From the NCBI GenBank assembly GCA_022446965.1, contig JAKVBV010000011.1, forward strand, positions 1,335-65,334: a stretch of DNA of 64,000 nucleotides, in the 5' to 3' direction. The position numbers and the translations under genes are program-made. This stretch comes from Phycisphaerales bacterium. Lineage in GTDB: Bacteria > Planctomycetota > Phycisphaerae > Phycisphaerales > SM1A02. Numbering within the stretch: position 1 is the stretch's first letter; every line of letters starts with the position of its first letter. The notes under the pieces are model-generated. The model searched no databases and had not been told where the DNA came from. It was given only the letters and a program-made list of their open reading frames with translations. Positions 20,491 to 64,000 of this stretch are shown in pieces.

Positions 20491-21531
20491 TCAGAGGGAT
20501 AGCATCTGACGGACGAGCTCCGCGCGAACCGCTCGAGCATCGGCCGGTGACAGCGTGCCCCCGACACGATCACGCAGGTGCGCAGATTGCGTGTGCAAGA
20601 ACAACGCGTTGATGGTGTCCAGCGGGATTTCGTCGATCAGCCCAAGGCAGATGCCCAGCCGAACAGAACTCAGGCGACGCATGGCTTCGTCGGCTTTGAG
20701 TAGACGAGCAGCCCTCAGTTGGGCCAGGTCACGATGGACGCGGTCTTCCACGGCCAGTCGTTCGCGATCCATGAGCACATCACGAGCGGCACGTTCATAT
20801 CGCACGACGCCAGGAATCAGGACACGCTGGAATTGATCCAGCAATTCCTCTTCCGAGACGCCCAGTGTGCGTTGGTTGCTGATCTGGAAAAAGTTGCCGG
20901 CGGTCTCCGAGCCTTCGCCATAGTAGCCCCGCACCGCAAGATGCAGATCTTTGGCGGCCTGTCGCACCTTGGCGAATTCGCCGGTCATTCGGAGCGCGGG
21001 CAGGTGAACCATCGCCGAGAAGCGAATGCCGGTGCCCACATTGGTGGGGCAGGCACACAAGTATCCCCAGCGTTCGTGCACGGCCCAGTTGAGCCGCGTT
21101 TCCAACTCGCCGTCGAGGCGGATGAGCCGACGCAGACATCGTTCTGGTTGCAGTCCCGCGGCGATGGCGGACATGCGGATATGGTCTTCTTCATTGACCA
21201 TCACGCTCATCGTTTCGTCGTCGGCCACGGCCACGCCTCGCGGGGTGGTCGACTCGGCGAGGTGTCGTGAGATCAGATGCCGCTCCACCAGCAGTTGCTT
21301 GTCGTGGCCACTGGCCGTTTCCAGGTCGATCCAGGACAGGTTCTCGTCCAGATCACCCTGCAACAGGGCGCCGCGCAGCATGGCCGTGATGCTTCTGCTG
21401 CGGTCGGGATCACAGCGATGGGCAAAGGGCTCGCCGGTGAGATTGCGAGCCAGTCGGACACGCGAGCTCAGCACGACGTCGCTGTCGGGGACATCGGTGC
21501 GTGCCAGCGGTGGGGGGCGGTCGCTTCGCAT
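20491..21531 (-). CDS. mcsB: protein arginine kinase (ATP:guanido phosphotransferase)
   Basis: 'SSRVRLARNLTGEPF', 'VNEEDHIRM' and 'CPTNVGTGIRFSAMVHLPAL' are phosphagen-kinase/McsB motifs. Confidence 0.85.
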   Translation of the reverse strand: MRSDRPPPLARTDVPDSDVVLSSRVRLARNLTGEPFAHRCDPDRSRSITAMLRGALLQGDLDENLSWIDLETASGHDKQLLVERHLISRHLAESTTPRGVAVADDETMSVMVNEEDHIRMSAIAAGLQPERCLRRLIRLDGELETRLNWAVHERWGYLCACPTNVGTGIRFSAMVHLPALRMTGEFAKVRQAAKDLHLAVRGYYGEGSETAGNFFQISNQRTLGVSEEELLDQFQRVLIPGVVRYERAARDVLMDRERLAVEDRVHRDLAQLRAARLLKADEAMRRLSSVRLGICLGLIDEIPLDTINALFLHTQSAHLRDRVGGTLSPADARAVRAELVRQMLSL

Positions 21532-21533
21532 GG

Positions 21534-22019
21534 TCAGCCTTCGCCTCGGCTGCGCTTGGCCAGTTCATCTCGGATTGCAGCGGCGCGTTCGTACTGCTCG
21601 GCGGCCACGGCCGCTTCGAGTTCGTGCATCAGCCGCTGGGTCTCGTGTCGCCGTGAGACGTCTTCGTCATTGCCTGCAGGGCGGCGGCCCACGTGATGTG
21701 TGGCGCCGTACTGCGATTGGCCGATCAATCTTCCGATGGGCTTGTCGAAGGCGTCGTAGCAGTCGGGGCAGCCCAGCAGGCTTGACTGGCGAATCTGAGG
21801 CACGGTCGTGCCGCACGTGGGGCAACTTGGTGACTGCACCGCGGCGGACCCCACTTTGGTCGTGAACGACGCCATGGAGACATGCTTGATGTCAGCGAAT
21901 CCGTGTTCAGCAGCGTGCTCGGCACACAGGTGAATCTCACGCTTGGTGCCGTCGATGATGTGGGTGTCGTGCACCACCGCCGGTTTGTTGCACATGTCGC
22001 ACTTCACGGGATGACTCAC
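21534..22019 (-). CDS. mcsA: McsA-like activator (CxxC zinc fingers + UVR domain)
   Basis: 'CDMCNKPA...HLCAEHA' and 'CPTCGTT...CPDCYDAF'. C-terminal UVR motif 'ELEAAVAAEQYERAAAIRDEL'. Lies 2 nt upstream of mcsB. Confidence 0.7.
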   Translation of the reverse strand: MSHPVKCDMCNKPAVVHDTHIIDGTKREIHLCAEHAAEHGFADIKHVSMASFTTKVGSAAVQSPSCPTCGTTVPQIRQSSLLGCPDCYDAFDKPIGRLIGQSQYGATHHVGRRPAGNDEDVSRRHETQRLMHELEAAVAAEQYERAAAIRDELAKRSRGEG

Positions 22020-45649: not shown

Positions 45650-46561
45650 ATGGCCGTCTTGAGGCGTCTTCCCGTGCACAGTGCCGAACGCATCGGACTG
45701 ATCGTCCTTGTTGTGGCGTGTTCGGTGCTCCTACATCTGCTGCTGCTGAGCCTTGTGCGGTGGCCAGCGGCCGCGGCGACCAGGACACCTGAGACGGTTA
45801 CCTTGACCCTACGGCCACCTGTGGCACAGCCTGTTGCCGCGGCCCCTGTGGCCTCGGGCACCACCATGATTGATTTGACACCCGCCACCGAGCCGGCGCC
45901 GGCGCCAGCGCAGCCAACCGTACCTGTACTCGATCTCCCGGTCGTCGATGGCTCCACTGGCCAAGGGGCCTCCGGTGGCAGTGGCATGGCGGCGGGGGTG
46001 TCGATCGAGCCGGGGCTACTGGTGGATGTCGGCCCGGTGCAGGTGCCCGCTCGACGCATGGTCTTTCTCGTGGATGTCTCTGCCAGCATGGGGGGATCAC
46101 TCGGGCGTGAAAGCAGACTGGCTGACGCAGCGAGCGAGGCGGTGTGCACCGCGCTGCGTGGCTTGCCCGACACCGTGCAGTTTCGGGTGATGCTGTTCAG
46201 TGGCGCGGTGCGTGAACCGCTCGGTGACCGGTGGCTCTGGCCCAGTGCCACCGACGATGCCTGTGCAGCCGTGCAGGCGGCGCTGGCCACACCCAGTGGG
46301 CTCACCCGTACCGGCGCCGTGTTTGATGAAGCGGCGCTGCACACCATCGGCGCAGAGGCACTCGTGCTGGTGACAGATGGGGGCATTCAAGATCTCGAAG
46401 CTGGCACGTTGGCCCAATGGCTGGAGTACGCCCCGAGCGTGCGATTGGACGTGGTGTTGATTGGCCCGGTCGGCACACCCGATGCCGCGCAGCGTCAGCT
46501 CGAGCAGATGGCCAGACGCAGCGGTGGAGGATTGCACCGTCTCTTTGGAGGTGCACCATGA
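45650..46561 (+). CDS. membrane-anchored Pro/Ala-rich-linker VWA domain protein
   Basis: TM 'IGLIVLVVACSVLLHLLLLSLV'. Pro/Ala-rich spacer ('PPVAQPVAAAPVA...EPAPAPAQPTVP'). MIDAS 'VFLVDVSASMGG' (Asp codon at 46073) and 'LVLVTDGG'. Confidence 0.75.
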   Translation: MAVLRRLPVHSAERIGLIVLVVACSVLLHLLLLSLVRWPAAAATRTPETVTLTLRPPVAQPVAAAPVASGTTMIDLTPATEPAPAPAQPTVPVLDLPVVDGSTGQGASGGSGMAAGVSIEPGLLVDVGPVQVPARRMVFLVDVSASMGGSLGRESRLADAASEAVCTALRGLPDTVQFRVMLFSGAVREPLGDRWLWPSATDDACAAVQAALATPSGLTRTGAVFDEAALHTIGAEALVLVTDGGIQDLEAGTLAQWLEYAPSVRLDVVLIGPVGTPDAAQRQLEQMARRSGGGLHRLFGGAP

Positions 46562-47328
46562 TGTTGGCGATGATGCTGGTCTGTCTCGGGTCGGTGCGGA
46601 GTGAGGCGATCGCATTGATCGACGCCGGCCGATCGCTGCAGGCCGAGGCGGTTTTGATCCGGTCCGCCGACGAACCCCACCACGATCTGCTCATGGTGGC
46701 GCGGGCCCAGCGGGGCGATGCTGCAGCCTTGGCCGATGTGCCATGGGTGCTCGATCACATGAGTAAGGGCGGCGTGTTCGCTGCGGCGGTGGAAGCTCGC
46801 CTCGATCGAGCGCAGCGCATGGTCTGGTCCGTACCGCCGCTGGTTCGCAGTGCCGATGAACAGTCGTGGATCATCTCGGCCTTGCAGAAATCCATGCCGG
46901 ATGAAACGGATGGTGGCGATTGTCGCCGGGCGATCATCGCCGTGCTCAGTGGCACACTTGAAGGTCCGGTCGGCGACGCACCGACGGCCTGGCGAGATGC
47001 CGCACTGGCGATCGCTGGAGATGCGACGCAGCGTCGTGGTGCGCGTCATCGTCTGCAGCGGTCCGCCGCGCCGCCGCACGAGTTGGCCTGGCGACTGCAT
47101 GTGGTGGGCCGATCATGGCTGCAAGAAGACACGGACGGCGCCCGCCGCACCGGTCTGGTGCACCTGGCTCGCATTGTGGCTGACCCTGAACTTCGTGCGG
47201 CCAACGGGCACCTGGCGCTGCACGCACTGGACACGTTGATCGATGCGAGTGGACCACATGCAGAAGCACGGGATCGATTGATGGCGCAACGAACACAACT
47301 GCTCACTTCCATGGAGATGAAGCCGTGA
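46558..47328 (+). CDS. hypothetical exported helical protein
   Basis: ATG 46558 overlaps the upstream stop (ATGA). Putative signal 'MMLAMMLVCLGSVRSEA'. No motif recognised. Confidence 0.55.
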   Translation: MMLAMMLVCLGSVRSEAIALIDAGRSLQAEAVLIRSADEPHHDLLMVARAQRGDAAALADVPWVLDHMSKGGVFAAAVEARLDRAQRMVWSVPPLVRSADEQSWIISALQKSMPDETDGGDCRRAIIAVLSGTLEGPVGDAPTAWRDAALAIAGDATQRRGARHRLQRSAAPPHELAWRLHVVGRSWLQEDTDGARRTGLVHLARIVADPELRAANGHLALHALDTLIDASGPHAEARDRLMAQRTQLLTSMEMKP

Positions 47329-47981
47329 CCGTAGTACTGGCGATAGAAGACGGACTGCTCCCACTGGTGCAGGCTGGTGGCACGATCGGATGGATCCTGC
47401 TGGGTCTGTCCATCGTGGCGCTCGCGCTGGTGTTCCTGCATCTGTGGGTGATCAGGCGGGGCAGGCTGTTGCCGCAGGCGCAGATCGACGTTATCGGTGC
47501 CGCGCTGGCCAAGGGCGACGTGGATGAGGTGTTGGACACCTGCCAAGCGCAATCTGGCGATGCCCTTCCTGCTCGGATCACGATCGCAGCTATTCAACGC
47601 ATGCGGGTGTCTCCGCTTGGCGCACTGGAGGTGCACGATGCTGCTGAAGAGGCGGGCGCGGCTGAAGTCGCACGAATCGACCGTTCGCTGGAGGGCCTGT
47701 CGGTCATCGCCGCCGTCGCGCCGTTGATCGGGTTGTTGGGCACGGTACTCGGCATGGTTGACGCCTTCGGGGCCATTGCCGATCGTGGTCCCGAAGCGGC
47801 GTCTGAGCTGGCGTCGAGCATCTCGCTGGCGCTCGTCACCACCCTGCTCGGGCTGGGTGTGGCGATTCCGTGCGTGGCCTTGCATGCATGGTTTCGCGTA
47901 CGGCTGGAAGCCATCGCCGCCGATGCGGCGGAGGTGATGGAACTGCTGCTGGCGCCATTGATGGAGTCCGCGGAGGACTGA
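47325..47981 (+). CDS. exbB: MotA/TolQ/ExbB proton-channel family protein
   Basis: Three TM helices. 'IAAVAPLIGLLGTVLGMVDAFGAI' and 'LVTTLLGLGVAIPC' are ExbB/TolQ signatures. GTG overlaps the upstream stop (GTGA). Confidence 0.85.
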   Translation: MTVVLAIEDGLLPLVQAGGTIGWILLGLSIVALALVFLHLWVIRRGRLLPQAQIDVIGAALAKGDVDEVLDTCQAQSGDALPARITIAAIQRMRVSPLGALEVHDAAEEAGAAEVARIDRSLEGLSVIAAVAPLIGLLGTVLGMVDAFGAIADRGPEAASELASSISLALVTTLLGLGVAIPCVALHAWFRVRLEAIAADAAEVMELLLAPLMESAED

Positions 47982-48367
47982 TGCCTCGTCGTCGACGATC
48001 TCTGGCGGTAGTGGAACTCACACCCATGATCGATGTGGTGTTCCTGCTCATCGTGTTCTTTCTGGTGGCGGCCGATGCCACCCGGATGTCGCGACCGAGC
48101 GTGTCCCTCGTGGACGGCCCCGGTGAGGCACCGGTTGGTACGCATTGGGATCACGTGTTCACGCTCCAAGCCAATGGCCAATGGCGATCAGGACGCGAAG
48201 ATGAACCGGTCCGCCCGACACAGATCAAGTTGAAGGCGACAGATCGTGTGCTGCTGCGGACAGACGCCGCTGCGCCCAGCGGTCTACTGCTTGAACTCGC
48301 GGGACACCTGCGCGGACAGGGCATTGATCATGTCGAATTCGCCGTAGGTGCGGGGGTGGATCAATGA
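47981..48367 (+). CDS. exbD: ExbD/TolR family biopolymer transport protein (paralogue 1)
   Basis: 'ELTPMIDVVFLLIVFFLV' with the conserved TM Asp. The start overlaps the exbB stop (TGATG). Confidence 0.8.
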   Translation: MPRRRRSLAVVELTPMIDVVFLLIVFFLVAADATRMSRPSVSLVDGPGEAPVGTHWDHVFTLQANGQWRSGREDEPVRPTQIKLKATDRVLLRTDAAAPSGLLLELAGHLRGQGIDHVEFAVGAGVDQ

Positions 48368-48765
48368 GGTTTGCTGCGCATCGTCGTCGACAATATCGCG
48401 CTCGCGCCGTGGTGCGGCTCGCAGGACTGATCGACCTCGTGTTCCTGCTGCTGACGTTCTTTCTCGCCACAACGGCCCTGCTGGATCCGGAGTTTCGCGT
48501 GGGCACGATGCTGCAAGGCAGGGGAAGCAGCCAGAACGCGGTGCATGTGCCACCTGTCGTCGTGCACGTGCATGCCGAGGGATGGTCGGTCGGGCCACGG
48601 GCATGTTCCACGGTGTCCCAATTGCGGCACGTGCTTGAAGGGCTGCCTTCCGAGCCGGGTGTGGACATTGCAGTATCGGCCGATGCGCCAGCAGGCCATG
48701 TGGTGGTCGCAGTCCGTGAGGCCCGTCAGGCTGGCATGCAGGCCTTGCGGTTGCAAACACCATGA
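48364..48765 (+). CDS. exbD: ExbD/TolR family biopolymer transport protein (paralogue 2)
   Basis: 'RLAGLIDLVFLLLTFFLA' with the conserved TM Asp. ATGA overlap with the preceding gene. Confidence 0.8.
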   Translation: MRFAAHRRRQYRARAVVRLAGLIDLVFLLLTFFLATTALLDPEFRVGTMLQGRGSSQNAVHVPPVVVHVHAEGWSVGPRACSTVSQLRHVLEGLPSEPGVDIAVSADAPAGHVVVAVREARQAGMQALRLQTP

Positions 48766-50906
48766 CGGTTGCCGCCCTGTGTGCAGTTGCGGTGTTGTCC
48801 TTGGCAGATGGGTGGACAGAGACTGCCGCGTGGCTGCAGCGCACGGGGCAGCGTGATCTCGCACTCGAGGCGGCGGTCCTTCAGGCCCATGCGGGAGATG
48901 GTGGACGCGTTGCGCAAGGCGCACTGCTCGAAGCCATCATCGCCGTACTCGACGACCCCATGACTGATGCCCAGACACGCACTCGAGCCATCGCGGAACT
49001 CAAACGGGCACGGCCTGACTTCAGCGGCATGCTTGCGGTCGAGGCAGGCCTGGCATTGATCACGGCCGAGCGTCAGGACGCACTGTCGGCCGAACAGCGC
49101 GATGTGCTGTTGGCTGGCGTACTTCGTGATGCTGCGGCCGTGCGACGATCGGTACAGGTGCAGTTGGACGAGAGCACGCGGCACGCGCAGCGGCGTCGAT
49201 TGCAGGCGCTCCTGCGTCGGGCCGCCTTGCTCGAAGGCACGGTGCGTGTCGATCTGGGTGGGCATGATTCGGGCACGCGGTCGCTGCTGCTCACCGCATT
49301 GACCGGTGATGCCCGGGCGGATGACACGCTCGTCGCCGCCATGCCCGAGGGCATGTACGAAACACCCGATGCCGCGTGGGCCTGTGCCGCATTGGCGCGG
49401 CTGGCCCTGTCGCACGGTGACGTGCCAGCGGCAACCAGATGGCTGGGCCACCTCATCGCGGTGCAGTCTCCGGTGCTCGATGCGCCGATCGACAATGTGC
49501 TCGTGGCCGTGTTATCTGCAATGGGCCAGGAGACGGCCACGGTGTTTGTCGAAGATCACATGCCGATGTTCAGCACGGAGGCCATGATCGAAGTGGTCCG
49601 ATGGGTGCCCATGCTCGATGGCACGATGGCAGGTCGACTAAGTGACGATCAGGTTCGCGCGGCGCTCGCCAATTCGCCACGGGCCTTGCCCGATTGGGAC
49701 ACGCCAGGTGTGGCGTTGGCGGCCCATGACCGGGCTGTTGCTGGTGCACGGCCATGGCACATGGCGCACCATCGGCTCGAGCAGCTGTGGGCGAAGGGTG
49801 ATCGTTCCGCGGTCATCGGCCACGCCTTGGCCATGAGCCATGCCCAGCAGGTTGACTTGACTTCAGCATGGGCCGTCCTTGGTCAGGTGCCCGAGGCCAA
49901 ACGCACTCGCATGACGGACGAGATGGTGGTTTCGGTCTACAGCCGCATGACACCAGAGCAACGGGCGGCTGCGAGCGGCGCTCGCCTGATGCTGCAGGCC
50001 GCGATGGCATCACCTGATCTGCAGGTACGCAAGCACGCTGCATTGGCGATCGCAGCTATGGATGACACACCACCGCAGGACGTGATCGCCTTGGTGCATG
50101 GTGATGACAGCCCAGCAGCCCGTGCAGTGCGTGATGCAGCCCTGTGGCGAGGCTGGCGTGCCGGGGAGGTTGCCGCTGCACAGGCGGTGCAGGCGGCCGC
50201 GGACATGTTGCCCGATCCGGGTGCTGCCCGCCGTGTGCTGGAGGCGTTGCCTCATGCCGAACTGCCTGTGGGTCTCGCTGATGTCCTGGCCACGCGGGCG
50301 ATTGCGTCCCTTGAGTCCGGGCAGCTGGTCGCTCAGATCCGATGGGCACTGCAGATCGATGACACGGCGCGGGCCCTGGCCGTCTTCAACACCCGCGAAG
50401 ACCACGTCTCACCGGAGGATGTTCGTATTGCAGCGGGCGTGCTGCTGGAGCATCCTGTGCCGCTGGGCGACCACGTGTCCGATGCGGCGGCCGTGTTGCT
50501 TGGGATGGCGCCCGCTGCGGTGCAGGAGAGTGCGCAGCTGACCACTGTTCACCGCACGGTGTTGCAGCATTGGGCTCGGCACGTGCTTGGTGGGGCACAC
50601 GTGCCACTGGACACCTTGCGCACCCTCGCTGCGATCGACGTGCTCGATCAGGACGGGTGCATGGCGCTGGCCACCGTGGCCCAATCCAAGGGCGACTGGC
50701 ATTTGGCGCATGATCGCTGGCGGCGAGCGGTGCGCTTTGGTGGCCCTCGGGTGGCCTGGCTGCAGCTACAGGAACTCAAGGCGCTGGTGCATGTCGACGT
50801 TGATGCGGCCAGAGTGATTGCAGCACAACTAGCCGTGTTGTTGGAAGGCACGGCAGAAGGTGACGAGATCGCCGCCCTACGGGATCAGCTGGAGCCCGCG
50901 CCATGA
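48762..50906 (+). CDS. hypothetical 714-aa Ala/Leu-rich helical protein with N-terminal hydrophobic segment
   Basis: ATGA overlap at both ends. 'MTVAALCAVAVLSLADGW' is a signal or anchor. The long helical-repeat-like sequence has no recognisable motif. Antisense ORFs here are all short. Confidence 0.6.
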   Translation: MTVAALCAVAVLSLADGWTETAAWLQRTGQRDLALEAAVLQAHAGDGGRVAQGALLEAIIAVLDDPMTDAQTRTRAIAELKRARPDFSGMLAVEAGLALITAERQDALSAEQRDVLLAGVLRDAAAVRRSVQVQLDESTRHAQRRRLQALLRRAALLEGTVRVDLGGHDSGTRSLLLTALTGDARADDTLVAAMPEGMYETPDAAWACAALARLALSHGDVPAATRWLGHLIAVQSPVLDAPIDNVLVAVLSAMGQETATVFVEDHMPMFSTEAMIEVVRWVPMLDGTMAGRLSDDQVRAALANSPRALPDWDTPGVALAAHDRAVAGARPWHMAHHRLEQLWAKGDRSAVIGHALAMSHAQQVDLTSAWAVLGQVPEAKRTRMTDEMVVSVYSRMTPEQRAAASGARLMLQAAMASPDLQVRKHAALAIAAMDDTPPQDVIALVHGDDSPAARAVRDAALWRGWRAGEVAAAQAVQAAADMLPDPGAARRVLEALPHAELPVGLADVLATRAIASLESGQLVAQIRWALQIDDTARALAVFNTREDHVSPEDVRIAAGVLLEHPVPLGDHVSDAAAVLLGMAPAAVQESAQLTTVHRTVLQHWARHVLGGAHVPLDTLRTLAAIDVLDQDGCMALATVAQSKGDWHLAHDRWRRAVRFGGPRVAWLQLQELKALVHVDVDAARVIAAQLAVLLEGTAEGDEIAALRDQLEPAP

Positions 50907-51547
50907 AGTCGCGTCGTCGGCGAGTGATGTTGGCCGCGCAGCGTCGTGGACGTCGGCCTGGTCGCACAGTACTGTCGGTGTCAGCGCCGCAAGTGCAACG
51001 GCCCGATCGCCGATGGGGTGGCGTGGTGTTGTGGAGCGCGGTGGGGGTGTTGATCGTGGCGGCGGCCATCGTGGGCGGCGCGTTGCCTGAGTCCCAGCCG
51101 CCACTACCAGCGAAGGCTGAAGCACCTGCACACGAATTGGATGGCGCTGCACACCCTGAAGCGCAATCGCCGAGCGTCCATGCCCCAAGCACGGAGCCCT
51201 CGGATGGGCCCGTACTGTCTCTTCAGTCGCCTGCGGTTCGCCCTCAGCACGATGTGCAGCGGCTGGTCACGCTCGCAGCATCAGTGGATCTCGACGAGGC
51301 GGCACTGCAGCGCCATGTTGGTGTGATCGACGATGTGTGGGCCGTGTTGTCAGCGCAAGAGCGCGTGGCCGCAGCGACTGCGATTGAACAAGCGTTGCGT
51401 TTGCGGCGTGATCGTGTCGTCTGGTCCGGTGCGTTGATCAACGCGATGTCCGCGCCGATGCGCATCGCGGTCAGCACCCGATTTCAGGAAGCATGGCCCC
51501 GGCAGGGATGGCCACCGGTGTTCGGCGACGTGGCGATCAGCCCATGA
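50903..51547 (+). CDS. hypothetical bitopic protein (Arg-rich N-terminus, one TM, Pro-rich spacer, C-terminal globular part)
   Basis: 'RRRRVMLAAQRRGRRPGR', TM 'WGGVVLWSAVGVLIVAAAIVGGA' and 'PESQPPLPAKAEAPA...'. ATGA overlap with the upstream gene. Confidence 0.55.
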   Translation: MKSRRRRVMLAAQRRGRRPGRTVLSVSAPQVQRPDRRWGGVVLWSAVGVLIVAAAIVGGALPESQPPLPAKAEAPAHELDGAAHPEAQSPSVHAPSTEPSDGPVLSLQSPAVRPQHDVQRLVTLAASVDLDEAALQRHVGVIDDVWAVLSAQERVAAATAIEQALRLRRDRVVWSGALINAMSAPMRIAVSTRFQEAWPRQGWPPVFGDVAISP

Positions 51548-52004
51548 GCCAGGCGTGGCGGGCCGTCACAACGCTGAGGACTTCGTCAGTGATGTTGGCA
51601 GCCGACAGCGACCAGACCGCCCAGCGTGTGTGGAACGGATCCTGGCCCAGTTCGAGACCATCGCGAATGGCTCTCTTGAGGCGGCGCACGTTCAAGGTGT
51701 CCATGAATGCCGCTTCGATGGGCATCGCCAACTGCAGGTCTTCCGCGGCCGGAATGATCAAGGCAACCGGGTCGTCATCGGTCGTGTTCTCATTCTCGAT
51801 GAAATAGCCGATCGACCAGAACCAGCAGTCGCCATACCACCGCATCTGCTCGCTGATCTGCTCGAACTTCAGCACCGTCTTGCGGGTGCGATCGAAGAGG
51901 TCCGCGGCTTCGGCGGTGAGACCACGACGCAACTGCGCCACGGTGGGGGTGGTGAACTGGTTCGTCCAGGGTGTCTGCGTCGTACTCACGCAAGGGCTCC
52001 TCAA
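51537..52004 (-). CDS. hypothetical protein (start TTG 52004 or GTG 51989)
   Basis: 155-aa ORF with GC-rich third positions, convergent with the previous operon and overlapping it by 11 nt. No motif recognised and no ATG start. Confidence 0.45.
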   Translation of the reverse strand: MRSPCVSTTQTPWTNQFTTPTVAQLRRGLTAEAADLFDRTRKTVLKFEQISEQMRWYGDCWFWSIGYFIENENTTDDDPVALIIPAAEDLQLAMPIEAAFMDTLNVRRLKRAIRDGLELGQDPFHTRWAVWSLSAANITDEVLSVVTARHAWLMG

Positions 52005-53194: not shown

Positions 53195-54814
53195 TCAGGG
53201 AATGTCGACCCGGAGCACCTGATTGGCCCTGATGGGCCCTGGCACCTGCACTGGCAGATACGGCGGCATGGTCACGGTGATCGAGTTCACCTGGTCAAAG
53301 TCGCCCAGCCCCACATGCACCAAGTGATCGCTGGCGGTCATGTACGAGGACGCCGTCTGAACCGGAACGGTGATCATGCGATCGACCAGACGCACCTGTA
53401 CCACGGCACCAAGCGCCGGGGCGAAGGATGATCGACGCACGTCCACGCCCAGCCAGTTCGAATCCGGAGTGATGTTGCGGTACACCCGGGCAGGTGCGTC
53501 GCGATTCACCACGACCACGTCAATCTTGCCGTCGCGATCGATGTCACCAAAGATCGCGCCACGTGAGGTGAGGGGCTCATGGTGCTCGACACCTGCGCGC
53601 ACCGCAGTGGGCTCAAAGCGGCCCGTAGCGGTGCCGGCCAGCAGTAGATTGCGCTGCGCGTACGGGTCGCCTGACTCGGGCAGGTGTTGGGGACGTAGTA
53701 CGGCACCATTGGCTTCGTACAGATCGATATGGCCGTCGTTGTTGAAGTCGACGAATCCCAGGCCGAAGCGGGTGTTCGCGCGGGTGTTGGCTCGCAGGCC
53801 CGCACGAGTGGTGATGTCCACGAAGTACTGGCCGTCATTGCGAAACAGTGAATCGGACTCGTTGCGCAGATTGCACACGATCAGATCGAAGTCGCCGTCG
53901 TCGTCGATGTCGGCGATGTCGACACCCATGCCGGCCTTGGGCTTGCCTTCGTCATCAATGGCCACGCCAACTTGCATGCCGATTTCGGTGAAGGTGCCAT
54001 CGCCGTTGTTGGTCCAGAGATGATCCGGCATCAGATCGTTGGCCACGAAGATGTCCATCGTGCCGTTCTGATCAAAGTCGGTCGCCACAATGCCAAGCCC
54101 CGTGCCGGGCTTGGTGGAGATGCCGGCCGATTCGGTGACATCGGTGAACGTGCCCTTGCCGTCATTGATGTACAGCCGGTCGACGGTGGGCGCCATGAAG
54201 TTGTTGGGTGAGCAATACTCGGGCGACCCGATGGCGTCGACGCAGTCGAGGGCCGTGTCAGGCGTCCAGGCGAGGTAGTTCACCACGAACAGATCCAGAT
54301 CGCCGTCGGTGTCGGCGTCGAAGAAGGCAGCCGATGCGCCCCAGCCGTCATCCTCCACACCGGCGTTCGGGGCTTCTTCAAACGTGCCATCGCCGGTGTT
54401 CAGCAGCAGCACATTGGGGCCCAGATTGGTGACGAACAGGTCAATGTCGCCGTCGCCATCCACGTCGCCGGTGGCCACTCCCATGCCGTAGCCCTCGTAT
54501 TCGGTGCCGTTGGTCCACGGCGTGAACGTGCCATCGCCATCGTTTCGCCACATGGCGTTGGGGCCCTTGCCCTGCACGAAGTACAGGTCTAGATCGCCAT
54601 CGACATCGGCGTCCAACAGGGCGCCGCCGCCGCCGATGATCTCGGGCATGTGAAACGCACCTTCAGCCCCGGAGTGCCATGTGAAGTCGACACCAGCGGC
54701 ATCCGTGTGATCCGCGAACCACGGGTGTTGCGGAGGGGCGGACTGCGGGGACTCGGGTGCGTTGTCGCTACAGCCACCGAGGAGCGCCAGCGCCAGGAGG
54801 CTTCGTCTGGTCAC
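53195..54814 (-). CDS. CRTAC1-family lipoprotein (FG-GAP/VCBS repeats + ASPIC/UnbV C-terminal domain)
   Basis: Lipobox 'LALALLGGCSD'. Repeats 'DADVDGDLDLYFV', 'DVDGDGDIDLFV' and 'DIDDDGDFDLIV'. UnbV-like 'VDVRRSSFAPALGAVVQVRLVDRMITVPVQTASSYMTASD..VHVGLG'. GTG overlaps the upstream stop. Confidence 0.85.
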   Translation of the reverse strand: MTRRSLLALALLGGCSDNAPESPQSAPPQHPWFADHTDAAGVDFTWHSGAEGAFHMPEIIGGGGALLDADVDGDLDLYFVQGKGPNAMWRNDGDGTFTPWTNGTEYEGYGMGVATGDVDGDGDIDLFVTNLGPNVLLLNTGDGTFEEAPNAGVEDDGWGASAAFFDADTDGDLDLFVVNYLAWTPDTALDCVDAIGSPEYCSPNNFMAPTVDRLYINDGKGTFTDVTESAGISTKPGTGLGIVATDFDQNGTMDIFVANDLMPDHLWTNNGDGTFTEIGMQVGVAIDDEGKPKAGMGVDIADIDDDGDFDLIVCNLRNESDSLFRNDGQYFVDITTRAGLRANTRANTRFGLGFVDFNNDGHIDLYEANGAVLRPQHLPESGDPYAQRNLLLAGTATGRFEPTAVRAGVEHHEPLTSRGAIFGDIDRDGKIDVVVVNRDAPARVYRNITPDSNWLGVDVRRSSFAPALGAVVQVRLVDRMITVPVQTASSYMTASDHLVHVGLGDFDQVNSITVTMPPYLPVQVPGPIRANQVLRVDIP

Positions 54815-56232
54815 GGTTGCTGACCGCTTTCTTCGGAGAGCGCCGCATTGCGAACAGCTCGAGCCAGACCCGAGAGTTGTGGATGTTGTGGGCTGTGCTG
54901 CAGGCCGGCCATGGCGGCTTCGAAGGCCAATTGCAATTCACCCTTGCGGCGATGTGCTTCACCCAGAATCAACCAGGCACGTGGCGTGGCCGGATGTGAT
55001 TGAGCAACCATGTGTGATTGGGTGATGGCGTTGTCGTATCGCTCCACTTCGATCAGCACGGCTGCGTATTGCAAGCGCTCAAGTGGATCGGTCACGCCCA
55101 GGGCGAAGGCGGTGTCCATCGCGGCAATTGCATCGGTGGGGCGTTTGGCGACCAGATGAATGCGGGCCACCTGCAGGTGGCCATCGGGGACGTCCGGCTG
55201 TGCGTCGGCCGCGGCCATGGCAGCCGTGAGCGCGGGGCCGAGTTGATCATTGGCCCGTAGTGCCATGGAGAGATTTAACTGCGTCATGTAGTCGTCGCGT
55301 GCCACACGGACAGCTTGTCGGGCGACACGAAGCCACGCTGCGGAGTCGTTCCGGCGGCGATGCACATCGCCGAGGCGAGCAAGCAGGCCGATGTCATCGG
55401 GCCATACCTTGAGCGCAGATTGCGCCGTGCGCTGCGCCTTGAGCAGGTCGTTGTCGGCGATGGCGCGATCGATGCGGTCATACTCCGCGTCAAGCCCGTG
55501 CTTGGCATCCAGCAGGGCTGTCGCCCGATCATCGGGGAAGCGTGGCGCTTGAGGATCACCATCACGCAAGAACGGCGCAGCAGCGTCGGCTTGGCCACTG
55601 CGTTGCAAGGCCTGGCCGAGCAGGTAGCGCACGTGCGGGTGGCTAGTGGCTTGCAGCAGCGACTGCAGGGCGGTGGCCGCCTGCTGATGCTCGCCACGTT
55701 CCATCTGGACCCTGGCTTGGCCAAGGCGAGCTGCCGCTGCAGACGGGTCGTGCTTCAGCGCCTCGGTGAATGCGGTCATGGCGTCGTCGGATCGACCCAG
55801 ATCGAGCAGCCACTGGCCGTGTCGCCAATGGGCCGGGGCGTGCGTCGGGTCCAGCGTGATCGATTGGGTCATGGCATCGACGGCGGCCTGTACATCGCCA
55901 CGCTCAGATGCCGCCATGGCGGTGTAGTAGGTCGGTCGCGGGTCGATTGGTGCCATCTGTGACACCTGTGCCCAGGCCGTCGATGCATCGGCGGCCAGGC
56001 CGTTGGCCTGCAGCACCAGAGCGTAGGCAATCCTAGCTTCGGCACTGTCCCCAGCGTCGACAGCCGTTTGATGCGCCTGTTCGATCGCGGATCGCACCAC
56101 CGGATCAGCCGCCTCGATGGTGCTTGATGGGGCGGCTGGAGGCGGGGCGGGCGCATCGCAGCCGGCGAGCATGAGTGTCGCCGTGAGGGCCAGTCCAGCA
56201 GTCGTGAATGAGAAGAGTCGCTCGATCGCCAT
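54811..56232 (-). CDS. TPR-repeat lipoprotein
   Basis: Lipobox 'LTATLMLAGCDAP'. Multiple 34-aa TPR-like units ('AEARIAYALVLQANGLAADA...', 'AWLILGEAHRRKGELQLAFEA'). Confidence 0.8.
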   Translation of the reverse strand: MAIERLFSFTTAGLALTATLMLAGCDAPAPPPAAPSSTIEAADPVVRSAIEQAHQTAVDAGDSAEARIAYALVLQANGLAADASTAWAQVSQMAPIDPRPTYYTAMAASERGDVQAAVDAMTQSITLDPTHAPAHWRHGQWLLDLGRSDDAMTAFTEALKHDPSAAAARLGQARVQMERGEHQQAATALQSLLQATSHPHVRYLLGQALQRSGQADAAAPFLRDGDPQAPRFPDDRATALLDAKHGLDAEYDRIDRAIADNDLLKAQRTAQSALKVWPDDIGLLARLGDVHRRRNDSAAWLRVARQAVRVARDDYMTQLNLSMALRANDQLGPALTAAMAAADAQPDVPDGHLQVARIHLVAKRPTDAIAAMDTAFALGVTDPLERLQYAAVLIEVERYDNAITQSHMVAQSHPATPRAWLILGEAHRRKGELQLAFEAAMAGLQHSPQHPQLSGLARAVRNAALSEESGQQP

Positions 56233-56273: not shown

Positions 56274-57278
56274 ATGGCTCGTGCCCCGCAGACCATCGCG
56301 CCGTATCACGCCGCTGCCATTCAAACCGCGATGCCCTCGCCGTCGCATCGCGATGCCATCCCTGAGCGAATCGAGCACATGCTGACGCTCGCCGGGCAGA
56401 CCATTACCGGATATGAGCCGTTCTTCGACGTGCGGTTGCTCGTGTTTCCTGAATTCGCCCACACGGTGCCGATCCACACCACGCTTGAGCCCATCGTGCG
56501 TGACCTGGCCGTTGAGCTGGATGACACCATGCTTGACCCCTACGCCAGGTTCTGCGCCCAGCACGGGTGCTGGATTCAAACGGGCAGTTTTCTCGAGGTG
56601 GATCCGGCGGTCGGCCGTGACGTCGTCTTCAACACCACGGTGCTCATGGGGCCCGACGGAATCGAGTTCACCTATCGCAAGCTCAATCCATGGATCCCGT
56701 GGGAGATCCATGCTTCGCCCCATGATGTCGATCCTGCCGGTGACCATCTGCCTGTCGCCCACACCGAGATCGGGTCCATTGGTGTGGCCATCTGCTACGA
56801 CTGGCTCTTCCCGGAGGTCCTGCGTGAACTGCGGCACAAGGGTGCCGAAGTGTTGTGCAGGGTGAGCGCCTACATGGATCCGTGGGGGGCCACCCCGCCG
56901 ATGGACTGGTGGACCCTGTTCAACAGGGCCAGGGCCGCCGAGAACACCTGCTTCGTGGTGGCCGCCAACCAAGGGGCACACATGGACCAGTACCCGCCGT
57001 TCTCCTGGCCTGGTGGATCCATGGTGGTCGACTTTGACGGGCGCGTATTGGCCCAGGCAGATCCAGGCCCGGGAGAGAAGGTGGTGGTGGCACCCATTGA
57101 TGTGATGGCATTGCGTGCGGCGCGCGACCGGCGACGTGGCCATGACATGGCGGCGCATCACCGAGGCACCGCCTACCCGTATGCACGCCAAGCAGGCTTT
57201 CCCCCGGCCACCGATCATCCCATCAGTGTCGAGTCACTTGACGCCCGCATCGCCCAGGCCAAGGAGCGGCCATCGTGA
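56274..57278 (+). CDS. carbon-nitrogen hydrolase (nitrilase superfamily; amidase/formamidase-like)
   Basis: Putative Glu-Lys-Cys triad contexts: 'LLVFPEF', 'FTYRKLNPW' and 'IGVAICYDWLFPE'. Confidence 0.85.
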   Translation: MARAPQTIAPYHAAAIQTAMPSPSHRDAIPERIEHMLTLAGQTITGYEPFFDVRLLVFPEFAHTVPIHTTLEPIVRDLAVELDDTMLDPYARFCAQHGCWIQTGSFLEVDPAVGRDVVFNTTVLMGPDGIEFTYRKLNPWIPWEIHASPHDVDPAGDHLPVAHTEIGSIGVAICYDWLFPEVLRELRHKGAEVLCRVSAYMDPWGATPPMDWWTLFNRARAAENTCFVVAANQGAHMDQYPPFSWPGGSMVVDFDGRVLAQADPGPGEKVVVAPIDVMALRAARDRRRGHDMAAHHRGTAYPYARQAGFPPATDHPISVESLDARIAQAKERPS

Positions 57279-57289
57279 ACCATCGTGAA
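57270..57289 (+). repeat. perfect 10-bp tandem duplication CCATCGTGAA x2 spanning the stop/start junction
   Basis: Read directly: ...ggC CATCGTGAAC CATCGTGAAt... The first copy holds the GTGA stop/start overlap of the two genes. Confidence 0.9.
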
Positions 57290-60200
57290 TTGCTGTGTGT
57301 CGGACTTGTGCTCTCCACCTCGCTGGTGAGTGGATGCAGCGATCCGCCGCCACCACCAGATCCACCCCAGCCAGCACCCACCGCCGAGGTTGATGTGGCA
57401 GTGCACAACGCCGCAGTGGCGGCCATGGGGCGGTACGACTACGCCGAAGCCTTCGAGTTGCTTGTCGAACTGGATCAACGGTATCCCCGGTGGCCAGATG
57501 GGCAGGTCGATCTGGCCATCGCTCAATTGAACAGGCAACGTGAAGGGGATGAAGCCGCTGCGTTGATCCGTGCCCAAGCGGTGCAGGCCATTGCGTCGGA
57601 CAATCTCAGAGCGTGGTACGTGTCCGGGTTGCTCCGCATGAACGCTGGAGATGCGCAAGGGGCATTGGCCGACTTCATGCGGGTGGCCGAGGCCGACTCG
57701 ACTGATGCCTACGCCGCGTACTACAACGGACAAGCATTGAGCCAACTCGGTCAACCAGACCAGGCCTTGCCGTGGTTCGAGCGTGCCATCGACATCAATC
57801 CGTATCTGCGGTCCAGCTACTACGCCGCCTCACAAGCAGCCCGTCGCTGTGGCGACAGCGCTGCGGCCGATGCCCACCTCGCCGCGTTTCAACGCATGGA
57901 ACACAACCCTCGCGCGCAATTGGCAGAGCTCAAGTACACCCGCATGGGCCCCAAGGCGAACGTGTCGTCCATCGCAGGTCCGCAGCATGTGGGCGTCGTG
58001 CCTGACGGGCCGTTGTTCAATACGGTGGAGGTCATTGCAGGCATCCAGAGTGCCGGCCAGTGGGCTTCATTGGCCGCTACCCGCGTCCTGGATCGGCCTG
58101 TGGTCCTGGCCTGTGGTGACAGCGGCCTCGTGCTTCTGCATCGCACAGGTGACCAGTGGGCGACCACCCCTTGGCCTGAACAGGTGGACGATGTCCGCGG
58201 TGCGATGTTCGGTGATGTGAATGATGACGGCCATGTCGATGCCGTACTGCTGCGTGATGGCCCGGATCAACTGTGGCTCGGTGGAGAAGGCCTTCGATTC
58301 ACCTGTGATGAACGATTCGTGAATGTTCTGCAAGACGCCACGGCAGATGGTGCCCTCTTCGATGCGGATCATGATGGTGACCTCGATGTACTCACCCTGA
58401 CCGATGACGGTGTGCTGCACCTGCTGAACAACAACGGCAATGGCACATGGCGTGACATCTCGTCTGAGGCGTGGGGCAATCAGCAGCGGTCCAGCGGTGG
58501 GCGGCAGGTGGTGATTGCGGATCTCGATGCCGATCTCGACAGCGACGTGATCGTGGTTCGTGACGACGGCTGCGAGGTGTGGGTGAACGATCGCCTGTGG
58601 GCATGGCGGGCGTCGCCGGATGTATACGACGCATTCGCATGCACCGTGCCTGAGGCGCTGATCGCCTCGGACATCGATGCCGATGGTGTCGTGGATCTCG
58701 TGGCGTGCAGCTCGGATGGGGTGCAGGCATGGTCGCGCACCATGGTTGGATTCACAGCGAGGCCGTGCTTTGGTGATGCGGCCTGCAGCGGGACCGCCAT
58801 GGCGATCGTCGACATGGATGGCGATGGCGCTGTGGACCTCGTGCACGCTGGCGATGGTCGCCGCATTGGAGTGACACGCCATGACGGCACCACCGTGGGC
58901 GATACCAACATGCCGCCGATCTGGACCGTGGTCAACACGGTGCAGGGCGAAGGCGTATCGCTGATCGGAATCGATGAGGCAGGCGATGTACACATGGCCG
59001 CGCCGGGCGCTGGTCGGTTCACGTTCGTGGATGTGCAGCTGGCCGGTCGAATTGACGAAGGACAGTCGATGCGATCCAATGCCAGTGGGATCGGCGCGAC
59101 GATCGCAGCGCGGAGCGGCTTGCGTTGGACGATGGCCGGAGGCGTACGTGCCACCGCCGGGCCAGGGCAGAATCTGCAACCTCTGGCCATCGGTCTGGGC
59201 GGTGCACCTGCGCTGGATTTCGTGTCCATCGACTGGACAGACGGCGTGTTCCAGACCGAGGCGATGGTGGCGCCCGGGCAGATGCACACGATCGTTGAGA
59301 CGCAGCGTCAGCTCAGTTCATGTCCTGTGATCTTTGGTTTCAACGGCACGGAAATGGCGTTCATCACCGATTGCCTGGGTGTTGGTGGCATCGGCTTCTT
59401 CTTGGCGCCCGACACCTTCGCCCCGTCTCGTGGGCATGAACGGGTGTTGTTACCCGATGGGGCGCTGCAGCCACGCCATGGCCGGATCGATGTGGTCATC
59501 GCCGAGCCCATGCAGGAGACGTGCTACCTCGACGATGTGTCGCTGTTGGCGGTCGACGTCCCTGACGGGTGGGAGGTGCTGCCGGATGAACGGATGGGCA
59601 CCGGCGGCGACGAGCCGACAGGGGAACTGCTCTTCAGCCGACACTCAATGCAGCCGACGGTGGTTCGCACCGACGATGATCGCGATGTGACCGCTGCAGT
59701 GCTGGAGGTTGATGGTGTGCCTGCCGATCCAGGTCCACTGCATCGTCGGTTCATCGGTCGGACGGTCGATCCGCTCGTGTTCACCGCTTGGTTCGATGCG
59801 GCTCTGGATTCGCATGTCGGCACACCACTGATGGTGATCGATGGGTGGGTGGAGTACCCCTACGGCCAGACCATGTTCGCTGCGTGGCAGGCCAAAGTCG
59901 CCTACGACCCGATCAGCGTGGAGGTGCAACTGCCCGGAGGGCTGTGGGTTCAAGTCGCGGATCGTGTGGGCTACCCCGCAGGCATGCCGCGCACCATGGT
60001 GCTGCCACTGCATGATCTGCCCAAGGGGGCTCACAATCTGCGCGTGCGAACCACATTGGCCATGTCGGTGGACGCCATTCGGATCGCTTGGTCTGAACCA
60101 TGTGCAGCGGCGCATGTGACGACGTGCGTTCCAGCCTTTGCCGAGCTCTTTGATGCGGGATTCCCACGGGCGTGGCACGACACGCATGGGCGTCCGCAGT

Positions 60201-60532
60201 TCGATTGGCATGATCGATCGCCGTGGTGGGATACCCGCACACAGCGTGGTCTGTATTCAGCCATGGGCGACGTGCGGCAATTGGTGCGCGACCGCGACGG
60301 CGTGCAGGCCGTTTTCGGTGCCGGTGATGCTGTTGCACTGCAGTTCGACTCGCCGCCAGATGCAAGCACGGGGTTCACCCGTCAATGGGTGCTCGATGTG
60401 GGCGGGTGGGCCAAGGACATGGATCTCATGACACGCACCGGAGCAACAGTGGCTCCACTGCCTGGGCGACGCGATGCCCACGGGCAGGCGCTGCAGGAGG
60501 CCACGCAGACCCGCTGGCGTGATGGCCGCTGA
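57275..60532 (+). CDS. TPR + FG-GAP/VCBS + ASPIC/UnbV lipoprotein with about 400-aa C-terminal extension
   Basis: Lipobox 'LSTSLVSGCSD'. N-terminal TPR units. Repeats 'GDVNDDGHVDAVLL', 'DADHDGDLDVLTL' and 'DMDGDGAVDLVHA'. UnbV-like 'SNASGIGATIAARSGLRW...LAIGLGGAPALDFVSIDWTDG'. GTG start. Confidence 0.85.
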   Translation: MNHRELLCVGLVLSTSLVSGCSDPPPPPDPPQPAPTAEVDVAVHNAAVAAMGRYDYAEAFELLVELDQRYPRWPDGQVDLAIAQLNRQREGDEAAALIRAQAVQAIASDNLRAWYVSGLLRMNAGDAQGALADFMRVAEADSTDAYAAYYNGQALSQLGQPDQALPWFERAIDINPYLRSSYYAASQAARRCGDSAAADAHLAAFQRMEHNPRAQLAELKYTRMGPKANVSSIAGPQHVGVVPDGPLFNTVEVIAGIQSAGQWASLAATRVLDRPVVLACGDSGLVLLHRTGDQWATTPWPEQVDDVRGAMFGDVNDDGHVDAVLLRDGPDQLWLGGEGLRFTCDERFVNVLQDATADGALFDADHDGDLDVLTLTDDGVLHLLNNNGNGTWRDISSEAWGNQQRSSGGRQVVIADLDADLDSDVIVVRDDGCEVWVNDRLWAWRASPDVYDAFACTVPEALIASDIDADGVVDLVACSSDGVQAWSRTMVGFTARPCFGDAACSGTAMAIVDMDGDGAVDLVHAGDGRRIGVTRHDGTTVGDTNMPPIWTVVNTVQGEGVSLIGIDEAGDVHMAAPGAGRFTFVDVQLAGRIDEGQSMRSNASGIGATIAARSGLRWTMAGGVRATAGPGQNLQPLAIGLGGAPALDFVSIDWTDGVFQTEAMVAPGQMHTIVETQRQLSSCPVIFGFNGTEMAFITDCLGVGGIGFFLAPDTFAPSRGHERVLLPDGALQPRHGRIDVVIAEPMQETCYLDDVSLLAVDVPDGWEVLPDERMGTGGDEPTGELLFSRHSMQPTVVRTDDDRDVTAAVLEVDGVPADPGPLHRRFIGRTVDPLVFTAWFDAALDSHVGTPLMVIDGWVEYPYGQTMFAAWQAKVAYDPISVEVQLPGGLWVQVADRVGYPAGMPRTMVLPLHDLPKGAHNLRVRTTLAMSVDAIRIAWSEPCAAAHVTTCVPAFAELFDAGFPRAWHDTHGRPQFDWHDRSPWWDTRTQRGLYSAMGDVRQLVRDRDGVQAVFGAGDAVALQFDSPPDASTGFTRQWVLDVGGWAKDMDLMTRTGATVAPLPGRRDAHGQALQEATQTRWRDGR

Positions 60533-60571: not shown

Positions 60572-60618
60572 ATTTGACCGAAGACTGTTGTTTGAGGCGA
60601 TCATCTGCCTTGGACAAC

Positions 60619-63420: not shown

Positions 63421-64000
63421 CCGACCCCAGCAACCAACGAGACCGGTATGTCCCTGAGGGCGGTGATGATCAAGTCATCGCCGTGGCCCTTCGTCGATCC
63501 TTGATCGGGCTGTTGGTGGCGGTCTGTGTGGTGGGTGTGGGCGTCGCTGTGGTGGTGCTCAGCGGCGAGGCGGAGCCCGAGCCGGTGGTGAAGGACACCA
63601 CGGCCCCCGTGGCCCTCGTGGCCGACGAGGCGATCTTGCCCGAGGTTCGATTCACAGACATCACCCGAGAGGCCGGCATCGACTTCGTGCATGTGAATGG
63701 TGCCCAGGGCGAGCGGCTCCTGCCCGAAACGATGGGGTCTGGTGCGGCATTCTTCGATGTCGACAATGACGGTGATCAAGATCTCTTGTGTGTCAATGGC
63801 ATGTGGTGGCCGCACAGTGATCGAGCCAACGAGCTGGCACCCGCCGGTGTGCTGTATCTCAACGATGGGGCGGGGTACTTCGTGGACAGCGGCTGGGGCT
63901 TGGGGCCACCGCTGCAGGGCACCGGCGTCGCCTGCGGTGATGTTGACGGCGATGGGCTGATCGATGTGTACATCGCGGCAGTCGGATCCAATCGGCTGCT
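63417..64000 (+). CDS. CRTAC1-like FG-GAP protein, N-terminal part (runs off window end)
   Basis: Own translation from GTG 63417 (GTGA overlap with the cytochrome stop). TM 'LIGLLVAVCVVGVGVAVVVL', 'FTDITREAGIDFVHVNG...GSGAAFFDVDNDGDQDLLCVNG' and 'GVACGDVDGDGLIDVYIA'. Not in the ORF track because no stop lies within the window. Confidence 0.7.
   Translation, partial: MTDPSNQRDRYVPEGGDDQVIAVALRRSLIGLLVAVCVVGVGVAVVVLSGEAEPEPVVKDTTAPVALVADEAILPEVRFTDITREAGIDFVHVNGAQGERLLPETMGSGAAFFDVDNDGDQDLLCVNGMWWPHSDRANELAPAGVLYLNDGAGYFVDSGWGLGPPLQGTGVACGDVDGDGLIDVYIAAVGSNRL

Follow-up and report, generated by a model that had tools for sequence, protein, structure and literature searches.

A Phycisphaerales motor operon predicted to act through a MIDAS-bearing VWA domain in place of a TonB or TolA head

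Ton and Tol are the textbook routes by which Gram-negative bacteria carry inner-membrane energy to the outer membrane, and the heads of their transducers, TonB_C and TolA domain III (TolA-III), bind by β-strand addition. A different kind of head has been predicted by Williams-Jones et al. (2025, Mol Biol Evol 42:msaf138; PMC12204202), who described vWA force transducers encoded beside tolQ-like, two tolR-like and TPR genes in bacteria of the Planctomycetes-Verrucomicrobia-Chlamydiae (PVC) group, with Tichowtungia aerotolerans as the seed locus, and who reported such transducers from Proteobacteria, Planctomycetes, Verrucomicrobia, Bacteroidetes and Rhodothermaeota. In their AlphaFold 3 (AF3) models the conserved His of the vWA transducers lies at the TonB/TolA site of the motor. 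The same authors described a second family, the TPH-vWA proteins, which are membrane-tethered vWA proteins paired with TolQ only and which have a TolR-like pore helix with an Asp, no tolR genes being present. Our literature search found no paper besides theirs on a vWA force-transducer machine, a class known since 2025 as a computational prediction. Here we describe a distinct variant of that class, a cluster of seven genes at positions 45650-51547 of a 64-kb stretch of DNA (contig JAKVBV010000011.1 of assembly GCA_022446965.1; hereafter the window) from the metagenome-assembled genome (MAG) of a marine member of the Phycisphaerales. We consider it probable that the cluster encodes an envelope machine of Ton/Tol design, driven by the proton-motive force, whose force transducer ends in a VWA domain with a metal-ion-dependent adhesion site (MIDAS) rather than in TonB_C or TolA-III.

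The seven open reading frames (ORFs) lie on the + strand, at exactly the coordinates given in an earlier reading of the letters of the window (hereafter the sequence-only reading). Neighbouring ORFs overlap by 1 or 4 bases of start and stop codon, with ATGA at 46558, GTGA at 47325, TGATG at 47979 (the 1-base overlap) and ATGA at 48364, 48762 and 50903.

45650-46561, + strand: gene 1, 303 amino acids (aa), predicted VWA-headed, TonB/TolA-like transducer (Pfam VWA_3)
46558-47328, + strand: gene 2, 256 aa, exported and predicted helical partner, of a family without a name
47325-47981, + strand: gene 3, 218 aa, GTG start, ExbB/TolQ-type proton-channel subunit
47981-48367, + strand: gene 4, 128 aa, ExbD/TolR paralogue 1, transmembrane Asp D18
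48364-48765, + strand: gene 5, 133 aa, ExbD/TolR paralogue 2, transmembrane Asp D24
48762-50906, + strand: gene 6, 714 aa, all-α, probable α-solenoid with an N-terminal hydrophobic signal or anchor
50903-51547, + strand: gene 7, 214 aa, Arg-rich cytoplasmic tail, one transmembrane helix, Pro-rich linker and C-terminal domain

A site scan of the cluster found 0 sigma-70-like promoters and 0 + strand terminator-like sites within it. A relative at 88% identity has the seven genes in the same order and with identical lengths, and in comparison with it all seven have ratios of non-synonymous to synonymous substitution rates (dN/dS) of 0.07-0.30, the mark of purifying selection. Genes 2, 6 and 7 have no Pfam match and could not be annotated; because their dN/dS values are low, and their lengths and order are those of the relative, we regard them as real genes.

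It is gene 1 on which our interpretation turns. From a positively charged, cytoplasmic N-terminus the protein runs through a single transmembrane helix and a linker rich in Pro and Ala to a periplasmic VWA domain that matches Pfam VWA_3 (1.9e-8) and VWA_2 (2.8e-6) over residues 137-295.

45692-45760, + strand: transmembrane helix of gene 1, residues 15-37, carrying S25 (45722-45724) and H29 (45734-45736)
45764-46048, + strand: linker of gene 1, residues 39-133, 95 residues long, 17% Pro and 17% Ala
45791-45814, + strand: candidate motor box of gene 1, residues 48-55 (ETVTLTLR), β-strand-like, just after the transmembrane helix
46058-46534, + strand: VWA domain of gene 1, residues 137-295, with intact MIDAS D142-x-S144-x-S146 (46073-46087), T219 and D243

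When nine members of the gene 1 family (41-48% identity) were aligned, H29 of the anchor helix, C-S25-V-L-L-H29, was invariant in all nine, and position 25 was Ser in eight and Ala in the other. These two residues are the SxxxH part of SHLS, the motif with which TonB and TolA bind their motors (PMC12204202). Straight after the helix the consensus VTLxLxPP is conserved in the nine sequences, with L54 invariant, and wider relatives have IEFAVM or VEMAIM where gene 1 has its VTLTL segment. E. coli TonB has ISVTMV at the place of the motor box. The motor box is defined as the β-strand that follows the anchor helix in TonB and TolA (PMC12204202), and ETVTLTLR of gene 1 is a candidate for this element that would contact the ExbD/TolR dimer. 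The linker of gene 1 is equivalent to domain II of TonB and TolA, which in vWA force transducers is about 100 residues long (PMC12204202), matching the median linker of 55 relatives of gene 1 considered below. Within the VWA domain, the MIDAS residues D142, S144, S146, T219 and D243 are invariant among the nine family members, and so are C166 and C205, a pair that is compatible with a periplasmic disulfide. The dN/dS of gene 1 is 0.15. A search with the gene 1 profile against PDB sequences produced nothing useful.

The motor genes were more readily recognized. Gene 3 matches Pfam MotA_ExbB at 8.9e-28, its best NCBIfam model is tolQ (1e-18) followed by exbB (1.1e-10), and its LIGLLGTVLGM and ALVTTLLGL..AIP helices are conserved across clades, as LLGTVxGM and ALVTTxxGL..AIP; it is an ExbB/TolQ-type subunit that presumably forms a pentamer. 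Genes 4 and 5 match Pfam ExbD (4.5e-10 and 3e-10, respectively), and tolR is the top NCBIfam model for both. All NCBIfam scores of the motor genes are lower than the equivalog cut-offs, those for tolQ and tolR being 67.9 and 20.5 bits, far under the cut-offs of 221 and 127. The transmembrane Asp of each paralogue, D18 in gene 4 and D24 in gene 5, is invariant in 12 of 12 ExbD homologues. The two paralogues fall into separate orthologous groups, with 31-50% identity within a group and 17-28% between groups, and because of this we consider the pair to be old and ExbD1 and ExbD2 to be probable partners in a heterodimer.

What the motor genes do not come with in the window is any part of a canonical Ton or Tol output. 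No TonB_C (PF03544) or TolA match at E ≤ 1 was obtained for the seven proteins, and about 45 further ORFs of the window, searched against Pfam, include no TonB_C, TonB-dependent receptor, TolB, Pal, flagellar or Glt protein. The sequence-only reading had described one ExbB/TolQ protein and two ExbD paralogues that both keep the transmembrane Asp, a protein of TonB-like topology with a VWA head and intact MIDAS, and a window devoid of TonB_C, receptor, TolB/Pal or flagellar partner; on all three counts the profile searches and alignments agree with it, and a TonB_C or TolA-III match, the outcome against which it had set its proposal, was not found within the 64-kb window.

Is this combination peculiar to one genome? 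We searched 1.84 billion representative proteins with a VWA-family profile and obtained 200 matches, only two of them close, and architectures were counted among the best 150 of the 200. In that set 72 proteins are 280-380 aa long, and 55 of the 72 have an N-terminal [S/A/T]xxxH helix, with Ser in 47 of the 55 and Leu at +11 in 29; DxSxS is kept in every one of the 55, whose linkers have a median length of 100 residues. Proteins with this architecture are encoded both beside motor genes and on their own; they belong to Phycisphaerae, to other Planctomycetota and to Verrucomicrobiota, and those with a named source are from Phycisphaerales and Phycisphaeraceae MAGs, a Thermoguttaceae MAG, Opitutales and Verrucomicrobiae MAGs and two isolates, Cerasicoccus fimbriatus and Rubellicoccus peritrichatus. 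Longer profile matches of 489-610 aa (such as P0045, P0051, P0064, P0069, P0092, P0098, P0102, P0127 and P0134) have the same module of [S/A]xxxH helix, linker and VWA domain preceded by an N-terminal extension of 160-280 residues, a hint that some versions of the transducer include a domain in the cytoplasm. A scan of contigs with the VWA alignment returned the same clade and one match in a Myxococcota MAG (31% over 143 residues), which is in frame with a 1285-aa ORF and apparently unrelated.

In the close clade, whose VWA proteins are 41-48% identical, the seven-gene order is kept, and so are the flanks, with guaA, dnaX, ybaB, recR, rpoN, frr and pyrH on one side and a response regulator and FG-GAP/TPR genes on the other. 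Because the whole neighbourhood is syntenic, gene order in this clade is weak evidence on its own. It would also fit an ordinary Ton/Tol locus, in which the motor serves a canonical TonB or TolA and receptors from other parts of the genome and in which the VWA and helical genes are mere neighbours in a conserved housekeeping region (dnaX-ybaB-recR-rpoN, frr, pyrH) where order proves little. The loci beyond the close clade are as follows.

L011, Phycisphaeraceae MAG: pyrH (opposite direction), then VWA-391aa-ExbB-ExbD-ExbD-917aa-975aa
L016, metagenome contig: frr and pyrH (both opposite direction), then VWA-377aa-ExbB-ExbD-ExbD-899aa-979aa and further genes
L014, marine Phycisphaerae with different flanks: VWA-ExbB-ExbD-ExbD-773aa
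L012, Cerasicoccus: VWA gene without an adjacent motor, one ExbD gene about 7.5 kb away
L013, Thermoguttaceae MAG: solitary VWA gene
L015, Rubellicoccus: solitary VWA gene

The flanks of L014 are entirely different, yet VWA, ExbB, two ExbD and a large protein still stand together there, and from the contexts of L011, L014 and L016 we conclude that this core module is conserved in Phycisphaerae whatever its flanks. Conservation of gene order among relatives, which mattered to the sequence-only reading, thus extends to all seven genes in the close clade and to the core module in these three loci. An ordinary Ton/Tol locus is also at odds with the start/stop overlaps that join all seven genes, with the absence of TonB_C, receptor, TolB and Pal from the window, and with the report that Planctomycetes are without Pal (supplement of PMC12204202); we judge it very unlikely.

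The orphan VWA copies are much like orphan tonB paralogues. In Cerasicoccus fimbriatus (L012, 8001-8966) and Rubellicoccus peritrichatus (L015, 8001-9005) the SxxxH-linker-VWA genes lie amid genes for carbohydrate-active enzymes, their neighbours including a rhamnosidase, GH16, a SASA esterase, a melibiase, a LacI regulator and a LamB porin. This setting recalls the orphan tonB paralogues of polysaccharide utilisation loci and hints, by analogy, at a role in glycan uptake.

The three remaining genes of the cluster differ in how far they can be followed. Gene 2, which directly precedes the tolQ-like gene, begins with a short signal-like segment and has no match in Pfam, NCBIfam or PDB sequences. 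It shows 40-42% identity within the close clade and a dN/dS of 0.14, and its profile matches the proteins at the same position in L011 (391 aa, 2.3e-10) and L016 (377 aa, 1.9e-9), although no gene 2-like gene is present in L014; from these alignments it appears to be a conserved partner family.

Gene 6 (28-30% identity within the clade; dN/dS 0.22) occupies the place that proteins of 773-917 aa have after exbD2 in L011, L014 and L016. Those proteins have no Pfam match, and only their 714-aa counterpart in the window was modelled as helical. Gene 6 itself matched nothing in Pfam or PDB sequences. A word-indexed search with it found two proteins only, the window protein and one 88% relative, and a concatenated alignment of genes 2, 6 and 7 found the same two. 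Its AlphaFold 2 (AF2) model, effectively from a single sequence, has about 40 short helices with a mean predicted local distance difference test score (pLDDT) of 52.7, rising to 87 in residues 410-560, and Foldseek matched it only to generic TPR/HAT/HEAT solenoids at template-modelling (TM) scores of about 0.2. On this model gene 6 is a probable α-solenoid of TPR- or HEAT-like kind; an hhalign comparison of genes 2 and 6 with a consensus TPR was not significant, and neither has a TPR match in Pfam. Gene 6 is not detectably homologous to the 917-aa protein of L011 or the 773-aa protein of L014 except for a weak colinear C-terminal match (E 0.009), beyond which the gene 6 and gene 7 profiles found no positional counterparts in L011, L014 and L016.

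Gene 7 (dN/dS 0.30) has a transmembrane helix at about residues 42-58, a Pro-rich linker at 59-112 and a C-terminal domain of about 85 residues, and no match in Pfam, NCBIfam or PDB sequences. With no counterpart detected in L011, L014 or L016, it is by sequence a clade-specific anchored protein. The sequence-only reading had listed it among the proteins that stand in the place of a TonB- or TolA-type transducer, with a C-terminus that it could not assign. We rejected it as a TonB candidate: in an alignment at 22-31% identity its transmembrane helix is without a conserved polar residue, and its C-terminus was modelled, at low confidence, as all-α (AF2 single-sequence model, pLDDT 56, with five helices at 113-197 of pLDDT 60-77), for which Foldseek found no fold match.

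These features bear on a second alternative, namely that the motor acts through gene 7 or through a TonB encoded elsewhere, while the VWA protein is a static membrane-anchored scaffold or assembly factor that transmits no force and whose MIDAS attaches to the helical proteins of the periplasm. Assembly and scaffolding are common roles of VWA domains, SxxxH-VWA genes without a neighbouring motor exist, and gene 7 does have a TonB-like topology of positive tail, single transmembrane helix and Pro-rich spacer. However, the conserved His is missing from the helix of gene 7, as is any other conserved polar residue, and an invariant His is found in that of the VWA protein; moreover, gene 7 has no counterpart in L011, L014 and L016, where the VWA gene is always there. 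We regard such a scaffold as unlikely.

Two side observations concern the boundaries of gene 7. In L004 (15372-16010) and L006 (15305-15949) the called start of its homologue is about 120 bases past gene 6, although from the gene 6 stop onward the frame is uninterrupted and codes for the Arg-rich N-terminal part that is conserved; translation therefore probably begins further upstream, at a codon other than ATG. At its other end, gene 7 meets tail to tail a conserved ORF of 150-155 aa without a Pfam match (51537-52004, - strand), which overlaps its last 11 bases, as it does in all close relatives (L001, L002, L004, L006 and L007), and therefore there is no space for a terminator between the two.

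How, then, might a machine with a VWA-headed transducer work? On the reading we favour, ExbB/TolQ-like subunits would form an inner-membrane channel around the ExbD1-ExbD2 heterodimer, the transmembrane aspartates of which would carry protons, and proton flow would be turned into movement. The VWA protein would dock outside the ExbB ring via S25/H29 of its anchor helix, its VTLTL strand would engage the periplasmic domains of the ExbD proteins and its 95-residue linker would span the periplasm. The MIDAS could then grip an acidic residue of a partner, maybe a component of the outer membrane or one of the exported helical proteins that the operon itself encodes, upon which the movement of the motor would pull. 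The 256-aa exported protein and the 714-aa putative α-solenoid may be periplasmic scaffold or target proteins, and the 214-aa anchored protein may be a clade-specific accessory. We favour this reading because the seven genes are coupled by their overlaps, H29 and the MIDAS are invariant, VTLxL is conserved, the motor genes have Pfam matches, the architecture recurs in a wider family, the core module is syntenic, dN/dS is low and the class was independently predicted (PMC12204202).

There are also observations that weigh against it. The anchor motif of gene 1 is short, with Val at +11 and Ala at +15, leaving only the S-H half of SHLS. An hhalign comparison between the gene 1 family and E. coli TonB gave a non-significant E of 0.32, and consequently the resemblance to TonB is at the level of motif and architecture only. 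The α-solenoid proposed for gene 6 comes from a low-confidence model. Linkage of VWA gene and motor is not universal, as is evident from the motor-free VWA genes of Cerasicoccus, Rubellicoccus and the Thermoguttaceae MAG. The search for a canonical TonB covers the 64-kb window only, a point in favour of the ordinary Ton/Tol locus discussed above. Lastly, the authors who predicted the vWA force transducers know of no deletion phenotype for them (PMC12204202).

A broader reading, which we put forward tentatively and consider unlikely, is that the operon is a functional replacement for Tol-Pal in Phycisphaerae, with the MIDAS-VWA head as the link by which its TolQ-TolR1/R2 motor would pull on a partner in the periplasm or the outer membrane. 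The operon lies beside pyrH in three separate clades (that of the window, L011 and L016) and with frr in two, and it is because of this position, the tolQ/tolR-like scores, the purifying selection on seven genes and the reported absence of Pal from Planctomycetes (supplement of PMC12204202) that such a replacement can be suggested. If it were one, the operon could be a vertically inherited core machine, the partner could be the α-solenoid or the gene 2 proteins, and the outer membrane could be tethered or constricted by it in binary fission.

Several other genes of the window deserve mention. Two on the - strand, a 1042-aa protein with an LptD_N-like domain (6609-9737) and a BamB-like PQQ_2 β-propeller (16727-18385), are consistent with a lipopolysaccharide-containing outer membrane in the host. 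Secreted β-propeller proteins of the FG-GAP/UnbV_ASPIC (CRTAC1-like) kind lie on the flanks of the operon, at 30595-32844 (-), 53195-54814 (-), 54811-56232 (-), 57275-60532 (+) and 63417-63998 (+), and relatives keep them too; one of them, of 1085 aa, is a fusion with TPR repeats, and another has a TPR protein of 473 aa as its partner. A 948-aa protein at 60574-63420 (+) has weak multihaem cytochrome matches, the best being Cytochrome_C554 at 1.2e-4, and C-terminal TPR matches that are weak and under the cut-off. An ATP:guanido phosphotransferase resembling the protein arginine kinase McsB (20491-21531, - strand; 1.5e-60) adjoins a UVR-motif, McsA-like protein (21534-22019, - strand); the McsB/McsA pair is best known from Firmicutes and is found here in a planctomycete.

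It remains to set the locus against the systems that it resembles. Transmembrane-anchored VWA proteins with TPR-like partners occur in Bat operons, and Zorya uses a MotAB-like motor, likenesses on which a Bat/MoxR-type VWA aerotolerance complex or a Zorya-type defence system could be proposed. We rejected both and give them hardly any credence: there is no MoxR AAA+, DUF58 or BatA_N among the seven genes, and none of their products matches a PADLOC model at E ≤ 0.01.

The locus might also be taken for a counterpart of the Agl-Glt machinery of Myxococcus, serving surface adhesion or gliding; there, a TolQR-type motor ultimately acts on a VWA adhesin. In our view this is highly improbable. The two do share a TolQR-type motor and a VWA domain in one envelope machine, CglB being a VWA adhesin of the gliding machine (PMC9946355), and gliding was raised as a possibility by the authors of the vWA class (PMC12204202). 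Nevertheless, the VWA protein of the window is anchored in the inner membrane, whereas CglB is an outer-membrane lipoprotein that is not tied to the motor by an SxxxH helix. Glt-type proteins are absent from the window, and its hosts are marine-metagenome Phycisphaerales MAGs. We know of no surface motility in such Phycisphaerales.

The TPH-vWA family with its TolQ-only pairing likewise combines a membrane-tethered vWA protein and a TolQ-like channel, and membership was rejected, the helix of gene 1 having a His and no Asp and two ExbD genes being present. With Tol-Pal (TolQ-TolR-TolA-TolB-Pal-CpoB) the locus shares a motor that scores best against tolQ/tolR models, a predicted helical-repeat partner that recalls CpoB and a core-genome context; it differs in that TolA-III, TolB and Pal are missing from the window. 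With Ton it has in common the ExbB/ExbD motor with transmembrane Asp and, in the transducer, the SxxxH helix, a candidate post-helix strand and a Pro-rich spacer, but it has neither TonB_C nor a receptor in the window and instead has two ExbD paralogues and a MIDAS VWA head. We accordingly rejected membership of a canonical Ton or Tol-Pal system. A TonB head binds by β-strand addition to a TonB box, whereas MIDAS VWA domains bind ligands via a metal ion, and a transducer with such a head would imply a third output for motors of this design, a metal-dependent grip on an acidic ligand. The sequence-only reading held that the output module was distinct from those of Ton, Tol and Zor. It was right in that each of these fails at least one defining feature, but the novelty that this suggested belongs to the class predicted in 2025 (PMC12204202).

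It is that class to which the locus is closest. Common to both are a single transmembrane helix with Ser and His, a linker about 100 residues long that is disordered or rich in Pro, a strand-like segment as motor box (a candidate in the window) and, where TonB has TonB_C, a vWA head, as well as one tolQ-like and two heterologous tolR-like genes, a gene for a helical-repeat partner (predicted, in the window) and PVC hosts; the window thus has the SxxxH helix, the C-terminal vWA domain and the tolQ-like and two tolR-like genes that identify a vWA transducer with its TolQRR motor, in permuted order. In the window the VWA gene is first and there is one transducer, whereas in the Tichowtungia seed the VWA gene is last and there are two. 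The window also has the conserved 256-aa partner family and the clade-specific 214-aa anchored protein in addition to the Tichowtungia gene set, and its large partner is not TPR by sequence, whereas that of the seed is encoded by a TPR gene. The transducers of Tichowtungia are 474-476 aa long and have LDANKLM or IDADKRM in the place of DxSxS, a degenerate MIDAS, whereas the window family is about 300 aa long, has a VWA_3 domain that Pfam recognizes and keeps an intact DxSxS...T...D MIDAS. Transducer 2 of Tichowtungia (474 aa), which we transcribed in full from the supplement of the paper, has the helix ISIGIH35, LDANKLM at the MIDAS place and no Pfam VWA match, and hhalign aligned the gene 1 family with it only weakly (E 0.004, probability 8%), over 59 columns that bring the first VWA strand into register. 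Judged by these alignments, the window family appears to be a sequence-distinct, shorter and MIDAS-intact version of the vWA force transducers, which would give the class at least two sequence-distinct head types, MIDAS-intact and MIDAS-degenerate. With its intact MIDAS, invariant anchor His, two ExbD paralogues and gene 2 partner family, the window variant offers a clean handle for the first functional tests of the class.

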